A DNA stretch of 30,038 bases, from the IMG/VR virus record IMGVR_UViG_3300033077_000655; one strand, 5' to 3'. Both the position numbers and the translations under genes were made by a program. Source of the stretch: a virus (Duplodnaviria > Heunggongvirae > Uroviricota > Caudoviricetes). Positions 8,195 through 29,126 of the stretch are shown here, piece by piece. The number at the start of each line of letters is the position of its first letter. Within the stretch, counting starts at the first letter, position 1. The notes under the pieces are model-generated. The model saw only the letters and a list, made by a program, of their open reading frames with translations. It had not been told where the DNA came from and did not search any database.

Positions 8195-10480
8195 ATGAGC
8201 AACTCAAATTCAAACGCAATGCAAGACAATCCAGAAATCGATGCTATCATCGAAGGTGCAGTACAAATCGCACAAACTTGGAAACACGAATATGTTCTAA
8301 CTGAACATCTATTGCTGAGCCTAATTAGACACGATCCGTTTAGAAAAACACTATCCAAATATGGCTGCGACGTGGCCATGCTGGAAACAGAACTATGCGG
8401 ATATTTGGATAGTTTACAAAGTTTAGTTAAAAATGAAACTGATTTGACTCCACGAAAAACCACTGCTCTGGAACGAGTGTTCAATCGAGCACTGACTCAG
8501 GTGTTGTTCACTGGACGTAGACAGGTTGTTACTATTGATCTTTATCTGGCCATCATGGGCGAAAGCAATAGCAATGCACAATATTTCTTGTTGAAATACG
8601 GCGTACACAAAGCTGAGTTTGTGGAATTTTGGACCAAGAATTATAAATCAGAAAAGTCAGCAGCAGGTATGAATCATCAGCAAGCCACCGAGGTCCTGGA
8701 AGAATACTGTACCAGTCTAAGTTCTCTTGCTGCTACCGATCGTCTGGAACCATTGATCGGCCGCGCAACAGAACTGGATGAAATGATTGCTGTACTAGCA
8801 CGTCGATTCAAAGCCAATGTGCTCATGGTGGGTGACCCAGGTGTGGGCAAAACTGCAATCATTGAAGGGCTGGCTCAAGAAATTGCAGCGAACCGTGTGC
8901 CTGAGTTCCTCAAAGGTTACGAAGTATGGAGCCTGGAGATTGGTAATTTGGTAGCAGGATCTAAGTATCGCGGAGACTTTGAAGAAAAATTCAAAGCAGT
9001 TATTGCAGCATTGGAAGCCAAACAGAAATGCATCTTGTTTGTGGATGAGGCACACACCATGAAAGGTGCTGGTGCCGGCAGTTCAGGTAGCTTGGACTTT
9101 GCCAATATGTTGAAACCAGCCATTACCAAAGGCAATTTAAAAGTAATTGCATCAACAACCTGGGAAGAATACTACGAATCATTTGAGAAAGACCGCGCAC
9201 TCATGCGTCGCTTTTATCGACTCAGCATCGATGAACCAGATCGTGACACTACAGAAAAGATTCTTATTGGACTTAGTCCACGTCTGGAAACATTCCACAA
9301 TGTGCTAATCGACACCGAAGCCATGACTGCTGCTGTGGATCTTGCTGCTAGATACATTCATGACAAAAAGAATCCTGACAAATCAATTGACTTGTTGGAT
9401 GCTGCTTGTGCTAGAGAACGTGTAAAAGATTCTGGACTGACCACAGTGACCAAAGGCATGATCGAAGAGCAAGTGGCTCGAGTAACAGGTGTGCCCACAG
9501 ATCGACTGCAAAATGAACGCAGTTTGAAAATTGTGGATCTAGAATCAAATATCAAGCAAAAGTTGTACGGACAAGAATCGGCTGTGGATTCAGTATTAGA
9601 ACGTGTGTACATCAACTTCTCAGGTATTGGTACTGTGGGCAAGCCCATGGCCAGTTTCTTGTTCCTGGGCCCAACTGGTACAGGTAAAACTGAATTGGCC
9701 AAGCTGTTGAGCGAGAACTTGGACATGCATCTGTTGCGTTACGACATGAGTGAGTTCCAAGAGAAGTTCTCGGTCAGCAGTTTGATTGGTGCACCTCCAG
9801 GCTATGTGGGCTTTGAAGATGGCAATGTAGGCGGCGGCAAGTTGATTAGTGATCTCAGCAAACATCCATTCTCGGTGATCTTGTTTGATGAAATTGAAAA
9901 AGCACATGCCGATGTCACTAACATCTTGCTGCAAATGCTGGATGAAGGGCATGTGACTGGTGCCAATGGCAAGCGGGTAGACTGCAAGAACACCATTATC
10001 ATCATGACATCAAATCTAGGTGCCAGAGACAATGAAAACAACAACATTGGATTCAGTACTGATTTGGAGAAATCCGGAGAAGAAGATCGTGCAATGAAAG
10101 AGTTCTTCCGCCCAGAGCTGCGCAATCGTATTGACAAGATCTGCAAGTTTACCAAGCTGGATACACTGGCCATCAAGAAGATTGTTGTGAAGTTCTTGGA
10201 TCACTTGAAAGCAAGTGTGGCAGAAAAGAATATCCGATTGTTCTTCTCAGAAGCAGTGATTGAACTGTTGGCTGAAAAGGGATATGATAGTAAAATGGGT
10301 GCTCGTCCGTTGAATCGCAAGATTGACGAATTGATCCGTGTGCCGTTGAGCAAGCGTATTTTGTTCGAACAGCTGACTGATTGTGCATTAAATGTAGAAT
10401 TGCAAGATGACAAGATTGTATTTGAACTGAAAAATCCACAACATGTACATACGTATATTGCCACCCCAGATACAGTGTGA
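8195..10480 (+). CDS. clpA: ATP-dependent Clp protease ATP-binding subunit ClpA
   Basis: Clp N domain, two AAA+ modules (GDPGVGKT/FVDEAH and GPTGTGKT/LFDEIEKAH), pore loops GSKYRG and GYVG, IGF ClpP-docking loop (NNIGFS). 761 aa, no ClpB middle domain. Confidence 0.9.
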   Translation: MSNSNSNAMQDNPEIDAIIEGAVQIAQTWKHEYVLTEHLLLSLIRHDPFRKTLSKYGCDVAMLETELCGYLDSLQSLVKNETDLTPRKTTALERVFNRALTQVLFTGRRQVVTIDLYLAIMGESNSNAQYFLLKYGVHKAEFVEFWTKNYKSEKSAAGMNHQQATEVLEEYCTSLSSLAATDRLEPLIGRATELDEMIAVLARRFKANVLMVGDPGVGKTAIIEGLAQEIAANRVPEFLKGYEVWSLEIGNLVAGSKYRGDFEEKFKAVIAALEAKQKCILFVDEAHTMKGAGAGSSGSLDFANMLKPAITKGNLKVIASTTWEEYYESFEKDRALMRRFYRLSIDEPDRDTTEKILIGLSPRLETFHNVLIDTEAMTAAVDLAARYIHDKKNPDKSIDLLDAACARERVKDSGLTTVTKGMIEEQVARVTGVPTDRLQNERSLKIVDLESNIKQKLYGQESAVDSVLERVYINFSGIGTVGKPMASFLFLGPTGTGKTELAKLLSENLDMHLLRYDMSEFQEKFSVSSLIGAPPGYVGFEDGNVGGGKLISDLSKHPFSVILFDEIEKAHADVTNILLQMLDEGHVTGANGKRVDCKNTIIIMTSNLGARDNENNNIGFSTDLEKSGEEDRAMKEFFRPELRNRIDKICKFTKLDTLAIKKIVVKFLDHLKASVAEKNIRLFFSEAVIELLAEKGYDSKMGARPLNRKIDELIRVPLSKRILFEQLTDCALNVELQDDKIVFELKNPQHVHTYIATPDTV

Positions 10481-14085: not shown

Positions 14086-14088
14086 CGA

Positions 14089-14094
14089 TAAATA
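14089..14094 (+). promoter_or_regulatory. TAAATA late-promoter-like box for the giant protein
   Basis: In a 13-nt intergenic gap, 4 nt before ATG 14099. Confidence 0.6.
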
Positions 14095-14098
14095 AGGC

Positions 14099-17000
14099 AT
14101 GAACTTTCATGACCTTGACAACTACAATCTCGCAGATGCTGTAAAATTCCATCAACGTCTAAACCCCCGTTTGTGGGGTAGAGACGAGCACTTGTTGCCC
14201 GAGGTGCGTGACAAGTTGTTGGCAATAGCAGCAGATTTCCAAGAATTCCTGGGTGTGGATGATCTCAACACCCGGGACATTACCATATCAGGTAGCAATG
14301 CTGCCTATAGCTATACTCCCCATTCTGATATTGATCTACACCTTGTGGTAGACATGCCCGACGATCCTGTGTATCAGGAATTGTTTGCAGCCAAGAAATT
14401 TCAGTATAACCAAGAACATGATATAAAGATTGCCGGAGTTCCGGTGGAACTGTATGTACAGCCTAGTGATCAAAAGCATGTGAGTCAAGGCATTTACAGC
14501 GTGAAGAATGGTGACTGGACACAAGTTCCGCAACGTCGTCGTGCTAGTGTAGATGACTCATGTGTACAGCACAAAACAGCTGATCTTGATGCTAGAATAC
14601 ATTCGGCCATCAAATCAGGTGATGCTGATGCTGTGAATCAGCTGTGGGACAAGATCAAAAACATGCGGCAAACTGGCCTGGAAAAGAATGGCGAATTTGG
14701 TTGCGAGAACATCACATTCAAACTGTTGAGAAATATGGGTTGTATTGGTCAATTAAAAGATGCCAAGACAGCAATACAAGATCGTGAATTAAGTCTAGCA
14801 CGTAAACCGGCGCCCAGAAAGAAGATGAATTATGGCATGCGTGATTACTGGTATCCAGGCACTGCGTATGCTGGCCAAGATCATCCTGCCGGCACTGAAT
14901 CAGAACAAGTGGATGAAAGTGCAGATCCTGATCACTTGAAAAAGATACTGCATCGTTTCTACGCCAGTTGCGTGGATAAGTTGCAGTTAAAGAATCCACC
15001 ACGTTTGCAATTAGAAACAACCACTGACTGGAGTCAAGAGAATGGTAGTTTTGGACAATATGACTCTGACAGCAACACCTTGATCCTGGCCACTTCTGGC
15101 CGTCATGTGCTGGATATACTTCGCACCATGGCACATGAGATGACACATCGCCAGCAGGATGAGCGCAATCCCCTGCCTATAGATGCTGGAGAAACAGGTA
15201 GTCCTTGGGAAGATCAAGCCAACGCCATGGCTGGTCGTATCATGAGAGATTGGGCACAAGAGCAGCCCGATATGTTCGATGGTGTCACACTGGAAGAAGC
15301 GTCAGGCTACATCCCCACAAAGAAGCAGGCTCGAGATCCAAGATTCGTCATGGCCCTGACCCGAGATGTGCGCCCAGGTGCTGTGGGCAAGGAAGCCAAT
15401 AAACTGGGATTACAAACAGATAGCCAAGGCCATCCTGCCCTGCTCACAGCAGGGTTGAACCGACTGTTGCGTGAGTTCAAAGAGCAGGACCTGTTTGAAA
15501 TCAACATGGGTGGCAAGAACCTGCGCAAAGAAGCAGCCAAGACAGGTGCCCTAGCCGGCATGGAGTTTGAGATGATTGTGCCCGACACTTCGTCCGAGGA
15601 TCAAGAACTAGAGCCTGACTTTGACATGGATGAATCAGCCAGCAGTGCCAGCGATATTCGAGACTTTTTCTATGATGGGGACTACAACAGTCGCAGAAGT
15701 ACCCAGGACATGATTGACCAGATAATGGATGATTACAGTAACTGGCAAGTGGAACAGTTTGATACACGTTGGGACCTGGATGCAGAAGAATTTATCTTTC
15801 AGTATATCAAAGACAATATAGATGATGACGACGTCAGACAGATGTTGGATCTGGAAGAGGAAGACCCCATTGGCCGCCAGGAATATCTACTGGTCGCGGA
15901 CATGATTGCTACTGAACAAATGGAACCCTGGTACGAAGATGCCAAGAATGATGCCAGCGATAGTTTCTACGAAGATGACCGTTTTGAAGACTTTCTTCAG
16001 GATAACAACATGGAGCACATGAGTGATATCTATCATCGTTACGATGGCATAATCCATTGGCCACACTACACCAGCGGTGGCGGCGACACCAGCGTTGAAG
16101 ATGTAGCAGATTCATTCAGTGCTGCTGTGGGTCGTCCTGCACAAGCAAGAAGTGATTATCATGCGTATGGTCAAGAGCGTCCAGGTCCTGGCAAGAACTT
16201 TTATGTGGTAGAGCCCGATGGCAGTTTACAGCCTGACGACACCAACGATTCAGGCTTGGAGTTTGTGAGCCCACCCTTGCCCATAGATGACATCATGTCA
16301 GACTTGAAAAAGGTCAAGGCCTGGGCAGACAAAACAGGTTGCTACACCAATGATTCTACTGGCCTGCACATCAACATCTCAGTGCCCAACTATAGCCAGG
16401 ACCAATTGGATTATGTAAAGTTGGCCTTGCTCATGGGCGATGAATATGTGTTGAATAACTTTGGGCGTGCCGGTAACACTTATGCAAAATCTGCAATGGG
16501 CAAGATCAAAGGCAAAGTAACTCCAGAGAATGCCAAACAAATCCTAGATAAAATGAAGTCAGGCCTGGATCAATTGGCTACCAAAGCCATTCATTCAGGT
16601 TACACAGACAAATACACATCAATCAACACCAAGGATGGACACATTGAGTTTCGCAGCCCTGGTGGGGATTGGTTGGATGATAACTTTGACAAGATTGAAA
16701 ACACGCTGATGAGATTCACCGTGGCCATGAGTGCTGCGCTAAATCCCGAAGCGTATAGACAAGAGTATCTCAAGAAGCTGTACAAGATGTTGGCACCCAA
16801 GGGTGAGAATGATCCGCTGGCCATCTTTGCAAAGTATTCAGCCGGTGAGTTGCCTAAGGCTGCACTCAAGAGTTTTGTACGTCAAGCACAGTTAGAGCGT
16901 GGTAACAAAGCAGCCAAGCAAGCTGAACTGGATGTCATGCAAAAAGAACTTACTCCAGCACCTGAAGAATCTAACCAAGGTAACTGGGGTATTTGGCTTG

Positions 17001-20000
17001 GGGCAGCGAATCAATTTTCACGTATGCCCGGGGAATATCCTGCAGGTCAATCTGATACTTTGCGTAGATTCCCCAGCCAGGAAGCTGCCGAACAATTCCT
17101 AGCTCAGACTCGTGCAAGCATTCCAAGAATGCGAACAGATGCGGAAGTTCGTGAAATCCAACCAGCAACTGCACCAGCAGCTATGCAACCTGGTCAATAC
17201 CAATGGCAAATAACCGATGACAATGATCAAGTGGTGTATAGTTTTGTATCATCTACTGCTCAGCGAGATGCCAACGACGTTGCAAGAAACTGGATACAAT
17301 CACAACCACCTTCTATTAGAGCTCGTGGTCCGTTTAATGTGTGGCTGGCACGCTTGGGCGGGCAAGTTCCAGGCAGCACGGTAGATCTACAACGTCAACG
17401 CCAACGAGATGCAGCATCAGCAGCAGCCAGCATGGCAGCAGATGCAGCACCGTCAGCACGTCAGCTGCAACAGATGGCTATGAGCAACGTCACGAATCCT
17501 CCATATTATCCACCACCTACTCCAATTCCTGGTGTGCAAGATATTGATATAGATATCCCTATGGCACAAACACAGTGGGAAGTATACAATAGATCGTCCA
17601 ATCAACCAATATTTGTAATGCAGGCAGCAAATCAAGCAGAAGCATGGCGCAAAGGTCAAGAATGGGTTGCTGCTGCGCAGCAGGCAGATCCAACAGTGGA
17701 TGCTAGTAACTTCTCTGTAAGACCAAGTTCTCAACCAGTTGCTGAAAGTATCACTGTGCTAGAACAACGTCTACGTCAAGAACTAGATGCCTTGGGCAAT
17801 CAAGCACCAACTGGTCCCGAGTCTCCTCCCAAAATGCCTGCAGGCACAATCAAAGTGGATGTGAGTGACATGTACGACTGGTACAAACTGGGGCAACACA
17901 TATCCAATCTCAAAGGCGTGGACAAGAGAACACTAGGAACAGGACCCCCTAGCACTGTTTTTGCGTTTGGTTCTGAAGAGCTGGAAAACAAATACAGTCA
18001 CGAACTCATGAACCTAGGCTTGAAAACACATGACCTAGACGAGCCTGGTGAAGAAGATGTAGATGAAAGCCAAGAAATTACTAAACTTGGTAAACTAGAT
18101 TCAGTTCTAGAACGATGCATTAGCATGATATATCGTGGTCAAGAAACCAATCCTGAAAAGTATGGGCGTGTGGCTGCTTGTTTGATCGATGACAAAAACA
18201 ATCACACCTATGCTATCAACTTGCCCGGACCCAATGGAACACGCCGCCATGCTGAACGTGTGGCCATCGATACACATTTAAAACGCCATGGACGTATTGG
18301 TTCCAATGCCATTATGGTCACCACATTGAGTCCTTGTGTGAATCACATGGCCGAGCGAGATGGTGAAAGCTGCACTGAGTTGTTGAGTGATTATGGTATT
18401 GAGAAATGCTATGCTGGGTGGCAAGACCCCACACAGCAGCCTGCAACAGCATATCCATTCAATTTGCAGGTCACTGATAATGCAGACATTTTTAACACTT
18501 GTCAAAACATAGCAGCCAGTTTCCTACCACAAAACATGACCAACAATTTAGATGAAGCAATCAATCCAGATTGTTTTGATCCAGCATTCAATGACACGCA
18601 AATCTTTGACGGGTTGACTTATCGTGCCACAGTGGAAGAAGAATACGGCAAGCCAGTGCTCACAATCAAGGTTCTTGATGACAACTTTCAGCAAGTGGGT
18701 CTTTCCAAATTCAAACAAAGCAAAAAAGGTGTGGTATCGTTGATCACCAGCTTTCGCCCTGAATATCAAGGGCAAGGTATTGCACGTAACATCTATGCGT
18801 ATGTTAGAATGTTAGGCAACACCATTGTTCCGAGTAAAAATCAGTTGCCACCGGGCAAGGCCATGTGGGCAGCCTGGAAGAAGTCTGGCGATGCCAAACA
18901 TCTAATGAAAGATGTAGCCGAAGCAATCAATCCAGATGTACTTGACCCTAGATTTAATCATAAACAAAAGATTGGTGACTACACATACATCGCAGGATTA
19001 GAACCAGATGAATGGGCGGATGAAGATTTGTTTGTTATCAGATGTTATGACGGTGAGAAGATGATTGGGCAGGCTAGATTCTACACAACATTTGGTGATT
19101 CATTAGTGAGCGCACTGACTACTGTAGAGCCTGAATATCAAAAACAAGGTATTGCAAGTACAATGTATGCGTATGCTAGAATGTTAGGTAATACAATAGA
19201 ACCAAGTGCTTCACAGTTGCCATCTGGTAAAAAAATGTGGAAAGCATGGAAGAAGTCCGGTGATGCCAAACACCTGATGAAAGATGTAGCAGAAGAAGAG
19301 GAACCAACAAGAATCAAGATCAACAATAACGATGCCGCACGAGCATTCATTCAACGAGTTTATGCTCGGTATCCACACACCATGCAGAACAATCATGTGA
19401 TGGTGTGGGGGTCCGGTGACGATCAACAGTTTGCCATGTTTGAATTAATTCCTAGCTTTAGCAAGCGTGGTGCAGTTGAAGTTAAATGGATTCAAGCATA
19501 TCCCTTACGCCAAGGAGTTGGCACACGTGCCATGAAAGAACTACAAGCCATGGCCAGAGAAGATGGCATCAGCTTGACATTGTTTCCCTGGGACAAAGGA
19601 CAAGTGAGTCAGAGCAAACTGACCAAGTTCTATCGTGGACAAGGATTTAAGCCTACTGTTAAAGGTGGTAAAGCAATGCAGTGGGAGCCTATATCTGAAC
19701 GCAAACAATATCCACTAGAAGATTTTGAAGGATTAAAATTCAGAATAGTTGCCGACAGCGGTCAACTGTTTGTGAATGCTCTTGATTCAACCGGAAACAA
19801 TGAGCTAGGCCATGTTACATTCAATATTGACGATAGTAATGGCGTGGATCCACAGGACTTGTTTATCAAAGACAAATTTCGAGGTCAAGGTATTGCCAAA
19901 ATAATGTATGATTTTGTCAAAAGCAAAGGTTACAAAATACAACGAAGTTGGGATCAAACCGATGCAGGTGCAGGTTTTTGGAACAAGCACAAAGGCGACG

Positions 20001-20377
20001 ATGTCCGTGTGTGGGAACAAAAAAATGTAGCCGAAGCAAGGCCTGAGCATCCTACCCATGAGTTTGAAACTGCGTACCATATTACCAGTACTGAAAATGC
20101 AGAAGAAATTCTATATGCTGGTCTAGATCCGTATGATGGCAAAGCATTCATGGTAGTAAACGAAGGTGATAAGGTCAAGCTACAAAGAGAACTAAGTACG
20201 GTTGGTAATTGGATGTACGCCAAGACAGAAGGCAGCGATGATCCATTGACATTGTTGCAAATTGATGTGTCAGGTATTCCATTAACATACGAACACGGAT
20301 GGTACTTTTCCACAACCAAAATCTCTCCTGATCGCATAACGGATTTGGGTGTAAAAGAACTAGCAAGGTATGTATAA
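14099..20377 (+). CDS. 2092-aa polyvalent protein: Pol-beta-type nucleotidyltransferase, HExxH metallopeptidase, amidoligase, Zn-deaminase, four GNATs, ART-like domain
   Basis: GSNAAYSYTPHSDIDLH (~14291); AHEMTH (15134-15148); GMEFE/GLEFVSP/STGLHIN/HIEFRS (~15557-16657); HAE...SPC...C (18248-~18372); four R/QxxGxG/A motifs (18554-~20030); AYHIT...ILYAGL (~20070). Confidence 0.85.
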   Translation: MNFHDLDNYNLADAVKFHQRLNPRLWGRDEHLLPEVRDKLLAIAADFQEFLGVDDLNTRDITISGSNAAYSYTPHSDIDLHLVVDMPDDPVYQELFAAKKFQYNQEHDIKIAGVPVELYVQPSDQKHVSQGIYSVKNGDWTQVPQRRRASVDDSCVQHKTADLDARIHSAIKSGDADAVNQLWDKIKNMRQTGLEKNGEFGCENITFKLLRNMGCIGQLKDAKTAIQDRELSLARKPAPRKKMNYGMRDYWYPGTAYAGQDHPAGTESEQVDESADPDHLKKILHRFYASCVDKLQLKNPPRLQLETTTDWSQENGSFGQYDSDSNTLILATSGRHVLDILRTMAHEMTHRQQDERNPLPIDAGETGSPWEDQANAMAGRIMRDWAQEQPDMFDGVTLEEASGYIPTKKQARDPRFVMALTRDVRPGAVGKEANKLGLQTDSQGHPALLTAGLNRLLREFKEQDLFEINMGGKNLRKEAAKTGALAGMEFEMIVPDTSSEDQELEPDFDMDESASSASDIRDFFYDGDYNSRRSTQDMIDQIMDDYSNWQVEQFDTRWDLDAEEFIFQYIKDNIDDDDVRQMLDLEEEDPIGRQEYLLVADMIATEQMEPWYEDAKNDASDSFYEDDRFEDFLQDNNMEHMSDIYHRYDGIIHWPHYTSGGGDTSVEDVADSFSAAVGRPAQARSDYHAYGQERPGPGKNFYVVEPDGSLQPDDTNDSGLEFVSPPLPIDDIMSDLKKVKAWADKTGCYTNDSTGLHINISVPNYSQDQLDYVKLALLMGDEYVLNNFGRAGNTYAKSAMGKIKGKVTPENAKQILDKMKSGLDQLATKAIHSGYTDKYTSINTKDGHIEFRSPGGDWLDDNFDKIENTLMRFTVAMSAALNPEAYRQEYLKKLYKMLAPKGENDPLAIFAKYSAGELPKAALKSFVRQAQLERGNKAAKQAELDVMQKELTPAPEESNQGNWGIWLGAANQFSRMPGEYPAGQSDTLRRFPSQEAAEQFLAQTRASIPRMRTDAEVREIQPATAPAAMQPGQYQWQITDDNDQVVYSFVSSTAQRDANDVARNWIQSQPPSIRARGPFNVWLARLGGQVPGSTVDLQRQRQRDAASAAASMAADAAPSARQLQQMAMSNVTNPPYYPPPTPIPGVQDIDIDIPMAQTQWEVYNRSSNQPIFVMQAANQAEAWRKGQEWVAAAQQADPTVDASNFSVRPSSQPVAESITVLEQRLRQELDALGNQAPTGPESPPKMPAGTIKVDVSDMYDWYKLGQHISNLKGVDKRTLGTGPPSTVFAFGSEELENKYSHELMNLGLKTHDLDEPGEEDVDESQEITKLGKLDSVLERCISMIYRGQETNPEKYGRVAACLIDDKNNHTYAINLPGPNGTRRHAERVAIDTHLKRHGRIGSNAIMVTTLSPCVNHMAERDGESCTELLSDYGIEKCYAGWQDPTQQPATAYPFNLQVTDNADIFNTCQNIAASFLPQNMTNNLDEAINPDCFDPAFNDTQIFDGLTYRATVEEEYGKPVLTIKVLDDNFQQVGLSKFKQSKKGVVSLITSFRPEYQGQGIARNIYAYVRMLGNTIVPSKNQLPPGKAMWAAWKKSGDAKHLMKDVAEAINPDVLDPRFNHKQKIGDYTYIAGLEPDEWADEDLFVIRCYDGEKMIGQARFYTTFGDSLVSALTTVEPEYQKQGIASTMYAYARMLGNTIEPSASQLPSGKKMWKAWKKSGDAKHLMKDVAEEEEPTRIKINNNDAARAFIQRVYARYPHTMQNNHVMVWGSGDDQQFAMFELIPSFSKRGAVEVKWIQAYPLRQGVGTRAMKELQAMAREDGISLTLFPWDKGQVSQSKLTKFYRGQGFKPTVKGGKAMQWEPISERKQYPLEDFEGLKFRIVADSGQLFVNALDSTGNNELGHVTFNIDDSNGVDPQDLFIKDKFRGQGIAKIMYDFVKSKGYKIQRSWDQTDAGAGFWNKHKGDDVRVWEQKNVAEARPEHPTHEFETAYHITSTENAEEILYAGLDPYDGKAFMVVNEGDKVKLQRELSTVGNWMYAKTEGSDDPLTLLQIDVSGIPLTYEHGWYFSTTKISPDRITDLGVKELARYV
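18554..19291 (+). repeat. Tandem intragenic duplication of a ~122-124-aa GNAT module
   Basis: Both units begin GAAGCAATCAATCCAGA (18554, 18920) and end WKKSGDAKHLMKDVAE; both contain YAY.RMLGNTI.PS..QLP.GK.MW. Confidence 0.85.
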
Positions 20378-21171
20378 TGAGAGCAAATGAATTTGAAGGC
20401 ATTGAAAAACTTCCAGCCGGTGAATATCGTGGTGGAAAAAGTTCATTATTTGTACCTACAAAATTTAAACCTGATTCTATACAGAAGTTGCCGGGCGGCA
20501 GCGGATTTGTATATACTATAGGGCCTGGGCAGTATGGTACAAATATAGAAATTTGGGATCCTAAGGGATCGGACTATATTAATGCAATAACACCGCCGGT
20601 TAGAAAACCTCGAGAGTCTGATGGTGCTTTTAAAGAACGAGTTCAATGGTGGGAATATGCCACTAGACGAGCATTAAATGCTCCAGGCCAATTGATTGGT
20701 AAACTTTCAATTACACCCGCAGATACAAGGATAGGCCAATTTCCGTTAGCCAATGCAGTGAGAGTTGATACTATCACAGTAGACGAGGATTATCGTGGCC
20801 GGGGCATTGCTAAAGCATTATACGGTATTGTATTAACTATTATGCAAGTGCCATTGGTAGCCGGCAATACGCAAACTCCTGGTGGACGTAGAAATTGGGT
20901 TAGCCTTGCTAGTATACCCGGCGTTGAGATAAAAGGGTATGTTGGGTTAGAAACTTATGATCTAAATTCTCGTAATATTGATACAGTCATGGGTCAATTG
21001 GGTGGTGAACATCTTGGCCGAGCCAAAGATGGAGACGCGTTTTTTACATTTGATGTACAACCTAGCACAACTGGACAAGAATTAGAAGCTTATGTCAAAA
21101 CTTATTTGCGTAAAATATACGGCAAAGGCCAATACAATTCTGGCCTGTATGCAACCTGGAGTGGCACATGA
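20377..21171 (+). CDS. GNAT acetyltransferase-domain protein with N-terminal MRANEF tag
   Basis: VDTITVDEDYRGRGIAKALY (motif A) and GNTQTPGGRRNW; TAATG coupling. Confidence 0.75.
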   Translation: MRANEFEGIEKLPAGEYRGGKSSLFVPTKFKPDSIQKLPGGSGFVYTIGPGQYGTNIEIWDPKGSDYINAITPPVRKPRESDGAFKERVQWWEYATRRALNAPGQLIGKLSITPADTRIGQFPLANAVRVDTITVDEDYRGRGIAKALYGIVLTIMQVPLVAGNTQTPGGRRNWVSLASIPGVEIKGYVGLETYDLNSRNIDTVMGQLGGEHLGRAKDGDAFFTFDVQPSTTGQELEAYVKTYLRKIYGKGQYNSGLYATWSGT

Positions 21172-22082
21172 GAGCAACGGAATTCTTAATTGAAAGAGCA
21201 ACTGATATATTGTTTCATTACACTGGTATCAGAGCCGGATTGAAGATACTGCAATCAGGTAACTTTGAACTGGCCAGCGTGACTGGTACCCGCAGTGAAG
21301 AACAATACGCACCGCCAGGCTATCCGTACTTTCTCAGTCTAACACGAACCATAACTGGTGACTATCATCGCTGGGTGGGATCAGGTGCTGTGATGTTCAA
21401 ACTCAATGGTGACTGGTTTAACTCTCGCTATATTGTAAAACCCATTGACTATTGGGAACGTGCATGGTTGCACAGCAATGGCACAAGAACAAGAGAATCA
21501 GAAGATCGTGTGTTCAGCAAAGACCCTACTATCCCAATCACTCCTGTGACTGAAGTTCATGTGTTGCTGAAAGAACAAAATGAATATCGCAGTCCAGAAA
21601 CACGACAGATTTTAATCACAGCCAAACAGCAAGGCTTGCCTGTGTTTTTTTACACAGACGAAGCTGCATGGCGATTGTTGGACAAGCGCAAGGCACAGAA
21701 ACCTGCACAAGCTCGTGAAGTGCTGCGTGGTCCGCAACCTGCTGGAAATTCTCGCAAGTCCACAGACTATGTGAAGCCTTGGATAGAGTTGATTACCAAG
21801 AACGACGAAGCACATCTAAGTGAACGAGCCAAACGTGCATTAAGGACCATGCGGTACTATGGTAATGCGTACGAGGATCAAAATCTCAGTGTGGATCTCA
21901 GCAATGCTCGCAAGCCGGATTCCGGAGACCGTGCCAGTGCAGTTTGGATAATTAAGTACATGCAGGACAATAATTTTAAATCCACACTGGAATTGAAGAA
22001 TGCCATCTCAGACAAATGGGAAGCCATCTACAAAGCCAAGCAACCGGTTGCAAAACCTGTAACACCGGGTGAACCTGTATGA
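21168..22082 (+). CDS. Putative ADP-ribosyltransferase-fold protein with MRATEFLIE tag
   Basis: LFHYT...LKIL, FLSLTR and RESEDR follow the H/R...S...ExE order of ART folds (inference). Confidence 0.5.
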   Translation: MRATEFLIERATDILFHYTGIRAGLKILQSGNFELASVTGTRSEEQYAPPGYPYFLSLTRTITGDYHRWVGSGAVMFKLNGDWFNSRYIVKPIDYWERAWLHSNGTRTRESEDRVFSKDPTIPITPVTEVHVLLKEQNEYRSPETRQILITAKQQGLPVFFYTDEAAWRLLDKRKAQKPAQAREVLRGPQPAGNSRKSTDYVKPWIELITKNDEAHLSERAKRALRTMRYYGNAYEDQNLSVDLSNARKPDSGDRASAVWIIKYMQDNNFKSTLELKNAISDKWEAIYKAKQPVAKPVTPGEPV

Positions 22083-22273
22083 GAGCCGCAGAATTTGTAA
22101 TCGATGAAAACTTTGCTGACGGTCGGAATCCCCAAGACAAGGGCGATAGCAAGCGGCATGGCATTCCAAAACATACCACATTGTCACAGTTAGATAAGAT
22201 AGGCCATGGATCGGGGCGTAAAGCACAGTTAGCCAGATGGCAGGCGAATATGAGACGAGGTCGTGCTAAATAA
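22079..22273 (+). CDS. Small basic protein with MRAAEFVIDE tag
   Basis: ATGA coupling; R/K-rich after the tag. Confidence 0.75.
   Translation: MRAAEFVIDENFADGRNPQDKGDSKRHGIPKHTTLSQLDKIGHGSGRKAQLARWQANMRRGRAK
22267..22272 (+). promoter_or_regulatory. TAAATA late-promoter-like box for the homing endonuclease
   Basis: Overlaps the last codon and stop of the upstream gene; 8 nt before ATG 22281. Confidence 0.55.
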
Positions 22274-22280
22274 TGCTATC

Positions 22281-22856
22281 ATGGCACAAGTTTACCTCAT
22301 CACAAATACTTTGAACAACAAACAATACATCGGTGTAACTAATAATTCATTACAAGAGAGATGGAAAAGCCATTTGTATGATAACAATGTTATCAGCAAA
22401 GCAATCAAAAAATATGGCAAGGAACATTTTTCTATAGAAGCAATACACGAGTGCGACACAATGGATGAAGCATACCTCCTTGAACCCAAATTCATCATTG
22501 AGCATAATACCAAATACCCAAACGGATACAATGTATCATCGGGTGGCAAAGGATCTCAAGTTGGCAAAAGAAAACCAACCCCTGAACATGTCAAACAGAA
22601 AATAAGAGAATCTATAAAGAAAAATCATTATTGGAATAACTTATCTGAGGAACAAAAAGAGAAATGTAGAGAAAGTTGGAGAGCAAACAATCAATCTCGC
22701 ATAGGACAAAAACGCGGTTCGTATAATAGTGGATTGTTCAAAAAAACTGTGTGGATCAACAACGGCAAACAAAGAAAAAGAGTTCCTGAGTCCAACATAA
22801 ACGATTGGGTATCAAACGGCTGGATGCGCGGGCACAAGAACGGAATCTCAAAATGA
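22281..22856 (+). mobile_element. Free-standing GIY-YIG homing endonuclease gene (Seg-like) with a NUMOD-type basic C-terminus
   Basis: VYLITN...QYIGVT, ERW..H, LLEPKFI, GYN...GG, KRKPTPEHVKQKIRES (NUMOD3-like), VWINNGK...GWMRG. Start set to ATG 22281. Confidence 0.85.
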
Positions 22857-23386
22857 AACTTTTAGAATTCAGTCCTCTCACACTTCACGGTAGTTTTGAA
22901 CGTGGACTGATCTTGAACAAACTGTGGCTGATCCACGAACTTCAAAAGATTCAAGATCAGTTCAGCACAATTTACATCCTGGGTGCATGGTACGGAAACA
23001 TGAGCATACTGTTGTCCAAGAGTGGAATTGAATACAATCACATTGTGAATGTAGATCAAGATGTCAGTGTAAACCGTGAGTCAAAGCGCATAGGCCGCAT
23101 GTTGAATATTGATAACATTGAATATATGGCCAAGGACGCTAATCGTTTGAACTATCAGCAACTGGATAAAGATGGACTAGTAATCAATACCAGCTGTCAT
23201 GACATGGAAAATCGCGGCTGGTTTGATCACATACCTGCAGGAGTCATGGTAGCACTGCAAAGCAGAGATGATGTGGATGATGATCTCGACAATTATGATC
23301 TCGGGCAAACACTTTATCAAGGATCAAGATCAGCTCGAGATCCCGAAACACACTATCAAAGTCTATTACGCATTGGGGTTAAATAA
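22853..23386 (+). CDS. Putative class I SAM-dependent methyltransferase-fold protein (MKLLEF start)
   Basis: Start re-assigned to ATG 22853 (ATGA overlap). IYILGAWYG motif I, VNVDQD motif II, VINTSC. Confidence 0.55.
   Translation: MKLLEFSPLTLHGSFERGLILNKLWLIHELQKIQDQFSTIYILGAWYGNMSILLSKSGIEYNHIVNVDQDVSVNRESKRIGRMLNIDNIEYMAKDANRLNYQQLDKDGLVINTSCHDMENRGWFDHIPAGVMVALQSRDDVDDDLDNYDLGQTLYQGSRSARDPETHYQSLLRIGVK
23380..23385 (+). promoter_or_regulatory. TAAATA late-promoter-like box
   Basis: 5 nt before ATG 23391; overlaps the upstream stop. Confidence 0.6.
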
Positions 23387-23390
23387 GCAT

Positions 23391-23819
23391 ATGAGAAACT
23401 TTATCAGACTTGTTGAAGCAATGGAAAAAGGTTGCCCGGTGGCCACACATGACATTGAACTCAATCTCAAGAATCGTCAAGCAGCCATTGACAATTATCA
23501 CTATGGTCCAGCAAATCCGTTAGAGCCAGGTGACTATTGGAAAAAGGCTGCTGACCGTTGGGCTGTGCCAGAAAAAATAGTCAAGACCATGAAATGTGGC
23601 AACTGTGCTGCGTTTGATGCCAGTGATTCAATGCGAAAGTGTATTGAGTCCGGAATCCGAGGTGATGAATCACATGCAGATGCTGCTGCCACAATAAATC
23701 TCAGTGACCTGGGCTACTGTAACTTCTTGCACTTCAAATGTGCCGGTACCAGGACCTGTGCGGCCTGGGTAGTGGGTGGACCTATTACTGAAAAAGATCG
23801 CGGAAAGAAGGTGATGTAA
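23391..23819 (+). CDS. Cys-rich hypothetical protein (MRNFIRLVE start)
   Basis: Start re-assigned to ATG 23391 after the TAAATA box. CGNC...C...GYC...HFKC...TC pattern. Confidence 0.75.
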   Translation: MRNFIRLVEAMEKGCPVATHDIELNLKNRQAAIDNYHYGPANPLEPGDYWKKAADRWAVPEKIVKTMKCGNCAAFDASDSMRKCIESGIRGDESHADAAATINLSDLGYCNFLHFKCAGTRTCAAWVVGGPITEKDRGKKVM

Positions 23820-24521
23820 ATGAAATCAAGTGAATTCATAACAGAACACCAGCAGCAGTTGGAAGAAAATCTACACCAGTGGTTCAAAGACAAATGGGTG
23901 AGATTTGGGCCCGACGGTAAGATTCGCGGTGACTGTGCTCGTGGAAGTGAATCTGAAGGCAAGCCCAAGTGTTTGCCACAGGCCAAGGCTCATGCACTGG
24001 GCAAGAAAGGGCGGGCGTCAGCAGCAGCAAGAAAGCGCAGACAGGATCCCGATGCTGATCGACGCGGTTCTGCCATCAATGTGGCCACTAAGAAAAAAAC
24101 AAACGAACAACGTTGTCCGCATTGTGGTGGCCCACTGATGGAATACGATGATCTGATGGAAAAGAAAGATGCCTGCTACTACAAAGTCAAGGCTAGTGCA
24201 AAAGTATGGCCTAGTGCTTATGCATCGGGGCGGTTGGTTCAGTGTCGTAAAAAAGGTGCAGGCAACTATGGCAACAAGTCAGAAAGTGCTGTGACTGAGT
24301 CCAACACATTATCGCCAGGTGCTGTGAGAAAGATACAACAGGTGCTGAACAAAAAATACAATGCCAATCTAGATGTGGATGGTGTGCTAGGCACCCTTAC
24401 TCGCCAATCTATTGAAAAATACATGCCATCAGCACATCAACAACCGGCGCCAGATTCCGATCGCACTACTCGTGTGCAAGGATTCAATGCCAAAGACAAT
24501 GATCACAGAAAGGTGAACTAA
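23820..24521 (+). CDS. Modular basic protein with MKSSEFITE tag and a C-terminal peptidoglycan-binding-like motif
   Basis: Basic Cys-containing modules separated by E-containing linkers; VRKIQQVL...LDVDGVLGTLTRQSI resembles PG_binding_1. Confidence 0.75.
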   Translation: MKSSEFITEHQQQLEENLHQWFKDKWVRFGPDGKIRGDCARGSESEGKPKCLPQAKAHALGKKGRASAAARKRRQDPDADRRGSAINVATKKKTNEQRCPHCGGPLMEYDDLMEKKDACYYKVKASAKVWPSAYASGRLVQCRKKGAGNYGNKSESAVTESNTLSPGAVRKIQQVLNKKYNANLDVDGVLGTLTRQSIEKYMPSAHQQPAPDSDRTTRVQGFNAKDNDHRKVN

Positions 24522-25316
24522 ATGAAATCAAGTGAATTTATAACTGAAAGCATGCGACGCTTGGAAGAAAAGTGGAGTCAAAAATACAAAAGCAGTATCA
24601 ACTGCTCTCATCCAAAAGGCTTTAGTCAACGTGCTCATTGTGCCGGTAAAAAGAAACACAACGAATCAGTTGAGATGGAAATGGTGTGTGAAATGTGTGG
24701 CATGTGTGAAACACACGGCAACATCATGGAAATCAAGACAGGTGCCACGGACTCAAATGGTGTGACCAAATGCTGGCCGAACAAACATGCAGAAGGCACA
24801 AAGAAGTCAGCTGTAACTGGCAAGCAGGTAAGAAACTGTGTGCCCAATGAAAGCATCGACGAAGCAGGATCACCGGCACAACAAGCAGCCATTGCTATTG
24901 CTATGAAAAAAGCCGGCAAGAAACCCAAAAGTTTAGACGAACAGTTTGACATGATTGAAGAAATGGTCGAACAACTGGCTGAAGCACATGGTGTTGATTC
25001 AGAACAAATTTGGGAAGATTTTGAAGCTGTGGATGATCATGAACTGTTGGAAACAGCAGCGTGGCGACGAAGTGCAGGCAAGAGCAAAAAAGGCGGGCTC
25101 AATGCCAAAGGTGTGGCCAGTTACCGGAGAGAGAATCCCGGCTCAAAATTACAGATGGCTGTGACCACCAAGCCCTCAAAACTCAAGCCTGGATCAAAAG
25201 CAGCCAAGCGTCGTAAAAGTTTCTGTGCCAGGATGGGAGGAGTCAAGGGCCCAATGAAGAAGCCCAATGGCAAACCCACACGCAAGGCATTAGCGTTGAG
25301 GAAATGGAACTGCTAA
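24522..25316 (+). CDS. Modular basic protein with MKSSEFITE tag
   Basis: Modules KWSQKYKSSINC..HC, CWP...NCVP, an acidic helix, and AAWRRSAGK...SFCARMGG...LRKWNC, separated by [ILV]-x-E linkers. Confidence 0.8.
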   Translation: MKSSEFITESMRRLEEKWSQKYKSSINCSHPKGFSQRAHCAGKKKHNESVEMEMVCEMCGMCETHGNIMEIKTGATDSNGVTKCWPNKHAEGTKKSAVTGKQVRNCVPNESIDEAGSPAQQAAIAIAMKKAGKKPKSLDEQFDMIEEMVEQLAEAHGVDSEQIWEDFEAVDDHELLETAAWRRSAGKSKKGGLNAKGVASYRRENPGSKLQMAVTTKPSKLKPGSKAAKRRKSFCARMGGVKGPMKKPNGKPTRKALALRKWNC

Positions 25317-25519
25317 TGAGAGCACAAGAATTCTTAACTGAAGAATTACTTACAGGATTCCATGTGTATGGTGCGTCCGTGCGTGTTAAAAATCCTTCGT
25401 ATACCACCAGTATAGATGTGGCCATATTTGCCAAGTCACCGGCTATGGCTCGATTGTTGCTGCAAGCTCAATACGGCAAAGACAGCATAGTTACCAATGT
25501 ACATAGGATAGACGAATGA
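25316..25519 (+). CDS. Small protein with MRAQEFLTEE tag
   Basis: Start re-assigned to ATG 25316 (TAATG coupling). Confidence 0.7.
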   Translation: MRAQEFLTEELLTGFHVYGASVRVKNPSYTTSIDVAIFAKSPAMARLLLQAQYGKDSIVTNVHRIDE

Positions 25520-25995
25520 GAGCCACTGAATTCATCGCTGAACTAAAGATAGACAACCGACAAGGGCTGGGGGCGGTGCCACACAATGCTGATGTGCATT
25601 ACTTTGGTCTAAACGTAGTAATGCGTCCCAGCATGTTCTTAAAGTTGAGTTTGCCTTTGGACAAGAACTCACCAGACGAACAAAAAACTATACAGCAATT
25701 GAAACAACAGATCAATGATCCTGGGTTTGGTGCGCCGTTCTTAACTGTAGTAGTGCCCGAAGCTTGGGAAAACAATGACTTTGGTCTAGAAGCCAAGGTG
25801 CGTGGTCATGACGGACGTCACAGAATGTATGCTATCATAGACGAGGAAGGTGACGATCCTGTGGAGGTTCATATTTTCATATCACACTTTCGTCGCAGAG
25901 ACATCACAGATGGTATCATCAAGAATCTACGCAATGGCATATTGAGTCAAAATGGACAGTATGTAAGTGGTCCTATATTTGGGGATGCCAAATGA
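25516..25995 (+). CDS. ParB/Sulfiredoxin-like domain protein with MRATEFIAE tag
   Basis: PFLTV...VRGHDGRHRMYAI resembles the ParB/Srx DGxHR motif. Confidence 0.55.
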   Translation: MRATEFIAELKIDNRQGLGAVPHNADVHYFGLNVVMRPSMFLKLSLPLDKNSPDEQKTIQQLKQQINDPGFGAPFLTVVVPEAWENNDFGLEAKVRGHDGRHRMYAIIDEEGDDPVEVHIFISHFRRRDITDGIIKNLRNGILSQNGQYVSGPIFGDAK

Positions 25996-26195
25996 GAGCA
26001 AGAGAATTCACACGTAAGAAAAAACCTGAATCGCAAGAACTAGATGAACTTACGTTTTTAGGGTCGCCCTGCACCAAGGATTGTTCCGGCCACAGGGCTG
26101 GGTATTCGTGGTCAAAAGCCCGTGGTAATCGTACTGCAATGAGTCACAGCAACAGTTTTAACAATGGCGCAAGATTGGCGTCACAGGGCAAATAG
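25992..26195 (+). CDS. Small protein with MRAREF tag
   Basis: ATGA coupling; FLGSPCTKDCSGHRAGYSWS module after LDE. Confidence 0.7.
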   Translation: MRAREFTRKKKPESQELDELTFLGSPCTKDCSGHRAGYSWSKARGNRTAMSHSNSFNNGARLASQGK

Positions 26196-26197
26196 AA

Positions 26198-26203
26198 TAA
26201 ATA
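26198..26203 (+). promoter_or_regulatory. TAAATA late-promoter-like box
   Basis: Intergenic; followed by an AAAGGAA RBS and ATG 26234. Confidence 0.55.
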
Positions 26204-26233
26204 AAGCATAGATCATTCATAAAGGAACATCAC

Positions 26234-27088
26234 ATGAGATCAACAGAATTTATCCAAGAAGCAGGACCCGGCGCTCCAGGTTTTGCACAAACTCCTGCTC
26301 AACTAGCAGCACGAGCTGCACAAGGTGAAAAGAATGCACAAGGAATTAAAAATTTCTTTGCCGGAGCACCACAAACTGGTGCTGCCAGCAACATGGCCAA
26401 GGATCCAGCACAACAAGCTGGCCAAGGTTTACCGGCGCCAGTGAATTCGATGGACGACAGCGACGATTTTTATGCTAACCCATTTGTGGCACCAGCAGCA
26501 CCGGTACAGGTGGGCACAGGAGTAGCACCGCCATCACCGCCAGATGGTATAGGAGTAGCACCTCCCACTCAAACCTCCACACCGGTACCTAAGAAAACGT
26601 TTACACCAGATCCAGCTGGTGTGGCAATTGCACAGCAATTAAAGATGGATTCTAACGCAATTAAATTATTCCAAAGAAATCAAGGCTTGACTCCAGACGG
26701 ACGAATTGGTCCTCAAACAACAGCGGCATTGAAGGCAGCACAATTGAAACAAGGCAACGTAGCTGCCAACGACAAAGGTGGTGCAAGAGGTGGTGCTGCA
26801 TTTGCGGCCACAGATCCACGCAGAACTGATGCTGCGGGCGGCGGCCAAACTGGATATAATTCACCACCATTTGCAGCACCAGCTGGTATAGGAGTAGCGC
26901 CACCGGCAGGAGCACGTCCACCAGCTGGTATAGGAGTAGCGCCACCAGCACCACGTGGCGGGAACCTGCGCAACCCAAATGCCGAAAATTTATTATCCAC
27001 AACTGAATCTAAACAACGTAATAAGTTAACAAATTTTGAAGAAAGCGTGGATCGCATGCGTCGGTTGTCAAACATGTTAAAAGGGTAG
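26234..27088 (+). CDS. Pro/Ala/Gly-rich protein with a peptidoglycan-binding domain and MRSTEFIQE tag
   Basis: IKLFQRNQGLTPDGRIGPQTTAAL is the PG_binding_1 signature; four G[TI]GVAPP repeats. Confidence 0.75.
   Translation: MRSTEFIQEAGPGAPGFAQTPAQLAARAAQGEKNAQGIKNFFAGAPQTGAASNMAKDPAQQAGQGLPAPVNSMDDSDDFYANPFVAPAAPVQVGTGVAPPSPPDGIGVAPPTQTSTPVPKKTFTPDPAGVAIAQQLKMDSNAIKLFQRNQGLTPDGRIGPQTTAALKAAQLKQGNVAANDKGGARGGAAFAATDPRRTDAAGGGQTGYNSPPFAAPAGIGVAPPAGARPPAGIGVAPPAPRGGNLRNPNAENLLSTTESKQRNKLTNFEESVDRMRRLSNMLKG
26879..26946 (+). repeat. 26-nt exact direct repeat, period 42 nt (encodes PAGIGVAPP)
   Basis: CCAGCTGGTATAGGAGTAGCGCCACC at 26879 and 26921; degenerate copies at 26513 and 26546. Confidence 0.85.
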
Positions 27089-27089
27089 C

Positions 27090-27869
27090 ATGAAGTTATT
27101 TGAGTTCTTGTCAGAAGCCACCAGCTCAAGCAATATCTATACCGTGAAATCCGGGGATTCCTTGCCAAGCATAGCAACGGCCAATGACACAACTGTGGAT
27201 GGCATCATGTGGCAAAATCCGGAGTTTGCTAGTGCTAGCGATATTGTGTTAGGATCTCGGATACGGTTGCCTGACACTAATGTACCTGGAACAGGATCGG
27301 GTGCCAGAGCATCAACAGGCGCTGTGAAACCCACAACAGCAAGACCACGTTCGATGAAAACGGCAAATCCAGTAGCATCCGGACTGACCAAAGAACAAAT
27401 GGCATTGTTGAACATGATTGCTGCCAGAGAAAGTGGTGGCGATTATAATATCATAAACTACAAAGCTCAAAATCTGATTGATGCCGGAAGATTAAACACC
27501 TCCGGGGGGCCTGGAGAACATCCTTTTGCATATGGTTACAAGGTAGATGGTCAAGACGTACCAGGAAAAGAGAAATATACAGCAGCTGGTAGATATCAGA
27601 TGGTGTGGACTACTTGGAAAGAAGCTGCGGCACTAGCCGGCGTAGATCCAAAAGATTTTTCACCGGCCAATCAGGATCTAGCAGCATTGGCTCTAGCACA
27701 ACAATCTTACAAAAAGAAATTTGGAGGTGATTTGAATACAGTATTGACTGACCCTTCAAAGGCAAGCCAAGTAGTAGCTGGACTTACACCTTGGAGTGTA
27801 CAAGCCGGAGGCCCGGGCTTCACTCCTCAGAATTATACTGCTGCATTGTCGGCTACAAAAACAGCATAA
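27090..27869 (+). CDS. LysM plus lambda-lysozyme-like muramidase/transglycosylase with MKLFEFLSE tag
   Basis: YTVKSGDSLPSIA (LysM); LLNMIAARESGGDY, AAGRYQM...TW and DFSPANQDLAA (lambda R-like). Confidence 0.8.
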   Translation: MKLFEFLSEATSSSNIYTVKSGDSLPSIATANDTTVDGIMWQNPEFASASDIVLGSRIRLPDTNVPGTGSGARASTGAVKPTTARPRSMKTANPVASGLTKEQMALLNMIAARESGGDYNIINYKAQNLIDAGRLNTSGGPGEHPFAYGYKVDGQDVPGKEKYTAAGRYQMVWTTWKEAAALAGVDPKDFSPANQDLAALALAQQSYKKKFGGDLNTVLTDPSKASQVVAGLTPWSVQAGGPGFTPQNYTAALSATKTA

Positions 27870-27901
27870 CACACCAAATAAATTTTAGAAAATAAATTAT
27901 C

Positions 27902-28228
27902 ATGTCTGCAACAATAACTTGGACCGTAACCAAAATGAACTGCTACCCAACAGCAGAGGGACAACCCAACGTGGTGTTTGAAGTTTACTGGATTTGTAGT
28001 GGTGTGCAAGACACCTACAGCAACTATGTGGCTGCTGTGAGCGCCTGCAATATTCCTTTGTCAACTACGTCTTTTACACCTTACGCTGATCTAACACAAG
28101 CACAAGTGCTTGGCTGGATCTGGGCCAATGGTGTTGATCAGTCTGCTGTAGAACTACAAGTACAAGCCTTGATTGACGTACAAATCAATCCTCCAGTGGT
28201 AATACTTCCACTGCCCTGGGCAGCATAA
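27902..28228 (+). CDS. Hypothetical phage protein (no tag)
   Basis: 108-aa ORF after a short AT-rich gap; ITWTV...YW.C...FTPYADLT..QVLGWIW...LPW. Confidence 0.75.
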   Translation: MSATITWTVTKMNCYPTAEGQPNVVFEVYWICSGVQDTYSNYVAAVSACNIPLSTTSFTPYADLTQAQVLGWIWANGVDQSAVELQVQALIDVQINPPVVILPLPWAA

Positions 28229-28230
28229 TC

Positions 28231-28827: not shown

Positions 28828-29126
28828 CTTCACAATTTGTGTTGGTCAAAGCTGATGTTTCAATAAACTGGGACGGTGCGGCACCCAATTATAGATTGTA
28901 TGTGGGTGGTGAATTGTTTGCTGATCGTACATATATTTGGCAGGAACAGTATCTAGAAGAACTGATCCAAATTTATGCACCACCTGGAGATTATGAGCTG
29001 CATTGGGAATTGGTTCCGTCAACAGCAGGTGAAATAACTGTGACTAATGTACGAATTGATGATGGCCAAGTGGGATCACGTATAGTAAATAATTCAGTAT
29101 TAAGGATCGAACATGAAAGTACATGA
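28824..29126 (+). CDS. Hypothetical protein
   Basis: ATGA coupling; 100 aa. Confidence 0.7.
   Translation: MTSQFVLVKADVSINWDGAAPNYRLYVGGELFADRTYIWQEQYLEELIQIYAPPGDYELHWELVPSTAGEITVTNVRIDDGQVGSRIVNNSVLRIEHEST
29086..29091 (+). promoter_or_regulatory. Possible internal TAAATA box upstream of the 29113 gene
   Basis: Followed by an AAGGA RBS and ATG 29113. It lies inside a CDS, so it may be chance. Confidence 0.35.

Follow-up and report, generated by a model that had tools for sequence, protein, structure and literature searches.

A giant multi-enzyme phage protein with module exchange at glutamate-ending joints: a candidate head-packaged cargo polyprotein

The window analysed here, a stretch of 30,038 nucleotides from a tailed phage (Caudoviricetes; IMG/VR record IMGVR_UViG_3300033077_000655), carries a giant gene on its plus strand (14099-20377) whose 2092-residue product, P0001, strings together approximately twelve modules, nine of enzyme type and three of unknown fold. 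There is hardly any doubt that P0001 belongs to the polyvalent multi-enzyme proteins of phages. The new observation concerns its architecture: the sites at which modules are gained, lost or swapped among related proteins coincide with [VLI]-x-E/[SA] motifs (the slash marks the joint). These joints match the cut site of T4-type head proteases, which argues that P0001 is probably loaded in the capsid, cut and injected with the DNA. Judged from sequence and genomic context, the explanation to which we give a slight preference over all others taken together is that P0001 is a polyprotein carried as cargo in the phage head, where cleavage by the prohead protease would yield about ten effectors to be ejected with the DNA; packaging into the head, taken for itself, is perhaps rather likely.

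Module exchange at the joints of P0001

The giant gene forms one open frame with an ATG start, and the opposite strand contains short spurious open reading frames (ORFs) only. Near-identical architectures exist in proteins from independent metagenomes (P0002, 1990 residues; P0003, 1814 residues), from which it follows that the long frame is no assembly artefact. A sequence-only reading of the window had described a multi-domain frame with nine named enzyme-type domains and had filed it under the polyvalent proteins of Iyer, Aravind and colleagues. The single frame and its homologs of near-identical architecture bear out this description, each of the nine domains is backed by its motif, a profile match or its fold, and the filing holds, with three other modules besides the nine. 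At the DNA level, a megablast search of the giant gene against 50,697 phage records gave no match. A tblastn search with P0001 gave partial matches only, namely stand-alone nucleotidyltransferase homologs in cyanophages, Maribacter and Lak phages and amidoligase-only matches in Atu_ph07 and RsoM2USA.

A family search of 5.8 billion proteins yielded 787 long homologs of 1150-3661 residues, all of which retain residues 1 to approximately 940, that is, the succession of nucleotidyltransferase (NTase), zincin and amidoligase. Past this point the family varies, and its members carry deaminase, GNAT, GH19 chitinase/lysozyme, LysM, M23 peptidase, peptidoglycan-binding, ParB, SET or NUDIX modules. The comparison of architectures that had been suggested as a check thus reveals a core that is kept and C-terminal modules that are exchanged, and the accompanying check on catalytic residues shows the motifs of the core triad retained in 116-120 of 120 family members.

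In order to locate the exchange sites, P0001 was aligned by BLAST with 119 homologs, and the positions at which an alignment breaks off were taken as breakpoints. They fall into 16 clusters, nine of which lie within five residues of a [VIL]xE motif (random mean 1.8), a number reached in none of 20,000 permutations. The six largest motif-coinciding clusters are found at residues 274, 400, 1214, 1316, 1483 and 1605, and a breakpoint peak is also present at 456. All seven [VIL]xE[AS] motifs of P0001 lie at module joints, and the presence of an [L/I/V]-x-E motif can be recorded at nine to ten of approximately eleven joints (Table 1). The same preference is displayed by the family as a whole: among 168 distinct junction strings, the share of V, L, I or M at position P3 amounts to 70%, that of E at P1 to 68% and that of S or A at P1' to 65%, and the junction motif persists whatever module stands upstream. 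Structure-based prediction places the joints at 234-275, 397-400 and 1975-1983 in disordered segments.

Table 1. Features of the giant gene and its surroundings (window positions in nucleotides; residues numbered along P0001; a slash marks a joint)
Feature	Position	Strand	Residues	Remarks
ATAAATA, T4-late-promoter-like	14088-14094	+		4 nt before ATG
Module 1, Pol-beta nucleotidyltransferase and helical bundle	14099-14917	+	1-273	ends QVDE/S
Module 2, minimal zincin metallopeptidase	14918-15298	+	274-400	HEMTH at 346; ends TLEE/A
Module 3a, conserved 67-residue segment (ASGYIP...)	15299-15499	+	401-467	ends RLLREFKEQDLFE/I
Module 3b, COOH-NH2 amidoligase (Amidoligase_2), acidic insert	15500-16933	+	468-945	Pfam PF12224
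Module 4, variable Q/A/P-rich region, unknown fold	16934-17746	+	946-1216	ends PVAE/S
Module 5, highly conserved, unknown function	17747-18067	+	1217-1323	ends DVDE/S
Module 6, RibD-like zinc deaminase	18068-18556	+	1324-1486	ends NLDE/A
Modules 7 and 8, tandem paralogous small GNATs	18557-19294	+	1487-1608 and 1609-1732	each ends DVAE/
Modules 9 and 10, two further GNATs	19295-20035	+	1733-1867 and 1868-1979	end PISE/R and NVAE/A
Module 11, small ADP-ribosyltransferase-fold domain	20036-20374	+	1980-2092	YHIT, GLxP, PDRI
Joints with [VIL]xE[AS]			273, 400, 1216, 1323, 1486, 1608, 1979	VDE/S, LEE/A, VAE/S, VDE/S, LDE/A, VAE/A, VAE/A
Further joints			1732, 1867, 467	VAE/E, ISE/R, LFE/I
Array of 11 tagged genes (M-R/K-x-x-E-F/I...)	20377-29313	+		directly downstream of giant gene

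Capsid-targeting tags and T4-type relatives

The internal proteins of phage T4 are loaded into the head by means of a ten-residue N-terminal tag, MKTYQEFIAE (PMC8442874), which is removed by the prohead protease gp21 through a cut after the final Glu (PMC9026906); with related proteases of giant phages, too, the cut follows the Glu of a three-residue motif (PMC5694885). In T4, exchange of the P1 Glu for Asp prevents processing. Starts of the form M-[RK]-x-x-E-[FI] are found in 12 of the 168 ORFs of the source contig, and 11 of these form one block that begins with a gene overlapping the stop codon of the giant gene. This next gene encodes a tagged GNAT, and the array also includes peptidoglycan-binding domains and LysM; one of its genes starts MRATEFIAE. 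Two further genes of this block may be recorded here: a tagged protein of 304 residues (21168-22082, plus strand; MRATEFLIE...) is without match in Pfam or PHROGs and 92% identical to a gene of locus L002, and a GIY-YIG homing endonuclease (22263-22856, plus strand; PHROG 314, E 2e-31) lies within the array and is itself untagged.

Three modules of P0001, the zincin, the amidoligase and the ADP-ribosyltransferase (ART), exist in related phages as stand-alone genes whose start is a T4-like capsid-targeting tag (M-R/K-x-x-E-F/I-[IL]-x-E). Elsewhere the ART module mostly occurs as stand-alone proteins of approximately 115 residues that start MRIxEI[LI]xE, and stand-alone homologs of the zincin start MRLYEF, MRIKEF or MRASQFIIE. 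The amidoligase of locus L022 is a separate gene of 607 residues, which starts MRALEFLNE/I and is 46% identical to residues 465-953 of P0001. The LNE of its tag aligns with the LFE at 465-467 of P0001, and by this alignment the segment RLLREFKEQDLFE (455-467) reads as a relic of a capsid-targeting tag that has turned into an internal joint. Within the same locus (L022:5802-15331) NTase and amidoligase are separate, and the amidoligase and the next four genes all start MRAxxF[IL]xE; separate tagged genes of this kind suggest an "unfused" state of the same cargo set. A 901-residue cassette protein that lies next to the end of the window (30433-33138 region; 29769-30038) starts with MIIDDFFKPKLTVAE followed by ASA; this leader is short and ends in V-A-E/A, as do joints of the giant protein.

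The head genes that such a system would need are encoded by relatives. Four of them (three 97-100% complete, one 82%) possess a Peptidase_S77 gene (E 1e-23 to 1e-25) and, beside it, a gp23-type capsid gene (E 1e-97), whose product carries four [IL]-x-E motifs in its first 45 residues. The giant-gene locus is collinear with that of three relatives whose genomes of 347-364 kb are complete or nearly so and in two cases bear terminal repeats. In the shared order a ClpA-like ATPase is followed by four small genes, then by a cytidylyltransferase-like and a 300-residue gene, and lastly by the giant gene and the tagged genes; flanking proteins of the three compared relatives are 43-80% identical in amino acids. 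Collinearity and the T4-type head genes of the relatives together indicate that the source is a T4-type giant phage of approximately 350 kb. This context supports the idea that P0001 may travel with the DNA, since an 11-gene tagged array adjoins it, muralytic modules are present in relatives and a T4-type head is encoded by the complete ones.

A head-packaged polyprotein and its alternatives

On these grounds the following course of events can be proposed. The giant gene and the tagged genes behind it would be transcribed jointly and late, from a promoter of TAAATA type, and the whole chain would be loaded into the prohead. There a T4-type prohead protease (gp21, Peptidase_S77) would cut after the Glu of each joint and thereby release about ten small enzymes in fixed proportion. 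Once ejected with the DNA, these enzymes might act during the first minutes of infection by covalent modification of host proteins, of nucleotides or of nucleic acids. The sequence-only reading had envisaged a single giant effector; its domain inventory stands, but P0001 is probably not one giant working polypeptide and would rather represent a set of cassettes joined at [VLI]-x-E/[SA] sites. More tentatively, and with somewhat less confidence than for the polyprotein itself, we speculate that T4-type giant phages fuse the genes of separately tagged head-internal proteins, whereby the old tag would survive as a protease site and one loading event would supply about ten effectors at a fixed ratio. 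The triad of NTase, zincin and amidoligase could then constitute a conserved injected core for the modification of the host, for instance by peptide- or nucleotide-tagging.

Several observations weigh against this proposal. The N-terminus of P0001, MNFHDLDNYNL, fails the test for a canonical T4 tag, and the family consensus MNINEL (M-N-I-x-E-L) resembles only the first six positions of the tag, under the loose pattern ^M...[ED][FILV]. The joint at approximately 940-958 is without the motif, and two joints have an atypical P1' residue (E and R). Avoidance of the motif inside folded cores amounts to a ratio of 0.65, which has to be read against control motifs ranging from 0.6 to 1.7, a range that is wide because the homologs are not independent. 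The contig from which the window derives (125,567 bases, a viral record of IMG/VR with an estimated completeness of 36%) gave no match to the Peptidase_S77, gp23, gp19 and T4 portal profiles, and throughout its 125 kb, the window included, it holds no portal, terminase, capsid or tail-tube gene; the prohead protease of the source phage is one that we infer from its relatives. With respect to the modules themselves, the NTase stays below the threshold of Pfam NTP_transf_2 (E 0.008; 16.9 vs 21 bits), as do two of the GNATs, module 7 (E 0.06 against Pfam; approximately 50% identical to module 8) and module 9 (Acetyltransf_1, E 0.005), and the ART module has no invariant Glu in an alignment of 28 sequences. 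For these reasons some modules could be inactive binders.

Among the other explanations, an uncut polyvalent protein of the classic kind, a chain of 235 kDa whose Glu-ending joints would serve as flexible linkers or in-frame recombination points only, fares best and is nonetheless unlikely. It has precedents in the N4 virion RNA polymerase, ArdC and TraC1, which travel uncut (PMC5512222), module swapping requires only a tolerated linker, and the avoidance ratio given above (0.65, controls 0.6-1.7) provides no sign of selection against internal sites. However, the joints are anything but arbitrary linkers: they keep the three specified positions that close the T4-type tag at its cleavage end, and one of them is homologous to a capsid-targeting tag; in addition, modules of P0001 are found elsewhere as proteins with tags of their own, and relatives encode a protease of matching specificity.

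Still less probable is self-processing, by which the embedded zincin itself would cut the joints, either in the capsid or after injection. The zincin motif recurs in 118 of 120 homologs, the module is the most conserved of all, its fold is near to that of the minimal peptidases Wss1, Spartan and selecase, and autoproteolysis by such metallopeptidase (MPTase) domains has been proposed for polyvalent proteins (PMC5512222). Yet the Glu-ending motif also closes the tags of small neighbours that lack a zincin, as well as those of stand-alone modules, and the T4 precedent assigns this cut to the prohead protease; a zincin that is itself a tagged stand-alone protein elsewhere looks like cargo, not like a processing enzyme. 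The least probable explanation is that P0001 is never packaged and acts as a cytoplasmic multi-enzyme protein in host takeover or in nucleotide or cell-wall metabolism, for which one may cite the missing canonical N-terminal tag, upstream genes of cytidylyltransferase-like and weakly, sub-threshold glycosyltransferase-like (Anp1) type without head genes, and the resemblance of the deaminase to the metabolic enzyme RibD, but against which stand the overlap of its stop codon with the first of 11 tagged genes, the three module types that are tagged cargo elsewhere, the muralytic modules of relatives, which make sense for entry only, and the conserved late-type motif.

The proposed head-packaged polyprotein combines features of systems that have been described separately. 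Polyvalent proteins of phages and conjugative elements unite 2 to 15 conflict-type domains per polypeptide (Iyer et al. 2017, PMC5512222), and P0001 agrees with them in joining zincin MPTase, ART, GNAT and NTase in one phage polypeptide, in its variable modules, in the muralytic modules of its relatives and in the predicted packaging and injection with DNA. Unlike the proteins described there, it contains both an amidoligase and a deaminase domain of catalytic type, neither of which is mentioned in that work, and it places a Pol-beta NTase in a phage, whereas such NTases are listed there for conjugative elements only. The same authors exclude the Alt-type ARTs of T4-like phages from genuine polyvalent proteins, and they propose MPTase autoproteolysis, not joints for a prohead protease; the word "linker" is absent from their account (PMC5512222).

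The likeness to the T4 cargo proteins IPI-III and Alt consists in the M-R/K-x-x-E-F-[IL]-x-E tags of neighbours and stand-alone modules, which are near MKTYQEFIAE, in the cleavage-type motif ending in Glu, in the T4-type protease and capsid of relatives and, for the ART Alt, in a cargo made up of enzymes. T4 cargo differs in being single-function and cut once or twice at its ends, whereas P0001 chains about twelve modules with internal tag-like sites and is without a canonical tag at its N-terminus. Many head proteins of the phiKZ-like giant phages, too, are processed behind the Glu of a three-residue motif, with several sites per protein (proteases gp175 of phiKZ and gp245 of SPN3US; PMC5694885, PMC9026906), but these phages belong to another lineage with a different P3 preference (A/S/G-x-E), and what is released there are propeptides and inner-body proteins instead of a row of different enzymes. 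In the literature available for searching, no phage enzyme polyprotein processed by a prohead protease is described.

If the proposal is correct, a T4-type phage would load a set of host-modifying enzymes as one gene product and have it freed by the head-maturation protease, and new effectors could be gained by simple in-frame insertion at a three-residue joint. Polyvalent proteins and cargo with capsid-targeting sequences, so far treated apart, would thereby be linked, and amidoligase and nucleotide-type deaminase would join the injected repertoire. The prediction is exact, as a specific Glu can be named for each of the approximately ten cut sites (Table 1), and among the modules one may look for enzymes of anti-defence or host takeover, for which they are candidates.

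Individual modules, promoter-like motif and neighbouring genes

The assignment of the first module as a Pol-beta NTase, made by the sequence-only reading from a GS...DxD motif, is upheld, the sub-threshold Pfam match notwithstanding. A GS..DID motif at residues 65-80 is present in 116 of 120 homologs, the module matches PHROG 36119 (E 7e-43), and in structural comparison the AlphaFold model of residues 1-400 (pLDDT 72.8) resembles AadA/AAD(9) and CdnE, with Foldseek E values of 2e-3 to 1e-2 and with other fold matches to 2rff (Z 6.7) and to the ANT and FAM46 nucleotidyltransferases. Both the hG[GS]...D-x-D motif and the alpha-beta-alpha-beta core of Pol-beta NTases are thus found in module 1. 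A phmmer search of the module against PDB sequences gave no match. It has 2656 shorter homologs of 150-478 residues, many of which are fragments on short contigs.

The zincin assignment likewise combines a motif, HEMTH, with fold: the model matches YbeY (Z 9.0), the M30 peptidase lugdulysin (8.6), Wss1 and Spartan (8.5 each) and selecase (8.1). Among close homologs the module is 82-100% identical, and its Pfam matches are sub-threshold. The amidoligase passes the cut-off of PF12224 (31.9 bits, cut-off 22), and its motifs GMEFE, LEFVS, GLHIN and IEFR are retained in 118-120 of 120 homologs, in agreement with what had been read from the letters. In the phage Atu_ph07 (locus L039, 150280-163143) a stand-alone amidoligase, gp196, lies two genes from a T4-like portal gene and adjoins gp195, annotated as "nucleotidyltransferase, T4-like GC1542", an adjacency from which it would appear that the pairing of NTase and amidoligase predates the fusion.

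Three modules (401-467, 946-1216 and 1217-1323) are without any match. Module 4, in the region that is most variable among homologs, has none in Pfam, PHROGs or the ESM Atlas; an interpretation as three copies of a small W...A..W domain found no support, as pairwise z values did not exceed 2.4 and the repeats aligned out of register. Outside the enzyme-type modules, conservation is highest in module 5, which has 70 homologs at 58-99% identity that occupy differing positions and shows 34 invariant columns around the core PPxMPxGTxxVDVSDxxDWYxxGQ; Pfam, PHROGs and a profile search of the PDB gave no match and the ESM Atlas no usable lead. In the PHROGs search, modules 3a, 4, 5, 6 and 11 all remained without match.

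The zinc deaminase is recognised by PF00383 (dCMP_cyt_deam_1; 36.3 vs 25 bits), and its zinc ligands, HAE (1384) and PC-x11-C, align with those of RibD (2hxv), as expected from the earlier assignment; the motif occurs in 54 family members, a number that agrees with the 53 module-bearing homologs and P0001. Of the four GNATs that had been named, modules 8 (Acetyltransf_1, 22.5 vs 20.7 bits) and 10 (Acetyltransf_7, whole-protein E 7e-15, best stretch 1891-1963) pass Pfam, while module 7 is assigned through its paralogy to module 8, with which it shares a Q-x-Q-G-I-A motif, and the call for module 9 stays below threshold.

The ART-like C-terminus, the weakest call of the earlier reader, is upheld by its model (113 residues, pLDDT 88.8), which displays the split beta-sheet of the ART fold. 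The top structural match is KptA/Tpt1 (Foldseek E 4e-4, probability 1.0, Z 8.6), and those that follow are almost all ARTs: CC0527 (Z 7.5), TreTu (7.4), DarT1 (7.3), PltA (7.1) and pertussis S1 (6.8); diphtheria toxin is also present, and TreTu, DarT, PltA, pertussis S1 and diphtheria toxin together span Z 5-7.5. As regards the ART catalytic triads (H-Y-E or R-S-E), in the 28-sequence alignment the His of YH[IV]T is near-invariant and the Arg of PDRI invariant, but no Glu is. The family of this module is rare, with 28 representatives in 1.84 billion proteins, and has no match in Pfam or PHROGs.

With regard to transcription, the late-type promoter that had been read upstream of the giant gene stands in part: the motif is enriched and conserved, but its core is TAAATA, and the window contains no copy of the T4 late box in its canonical form, TATAAATA. 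Of 19 ATAAATA copies in the contig, 10 lie at most 60 nucleotides upstream of a same-strand start, where approximately 0.8 would be expected (about 13-fold enrichment), and 6 of these 10 are at -11 to -13. In 14 distinct relatives with diverged flanks, a TAAATA core stands 4-9 nucleotides ahead of the ATG of the homologous gene. TAAATA or ATAAATA is also seen at window positions 3977, 5148 and 26197 and in loci L001-L028 (upstream of position 10001), likewise 4-9 nucleotides ahead of the ATG and often without a Shine-Dalgarno sequence between motif and ATG. If TAAATA is a -10 late element of T4 type, transcription would begin at the start codon or directly beside it, and the late mRNAs would be leaderless or nearly so.

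Upstream of the giant gene, a ClpA/ClpB-like double AAA+ ATPase of 761 residues is encoded at 8195-10480 on the plus strand (PHROG 4871, E 1e-234); any tie to the unfolding or loading of cargo is pure speculation. It is located six genes before the giant gene and is found at the same position in all relatives, with 72-93% identity.

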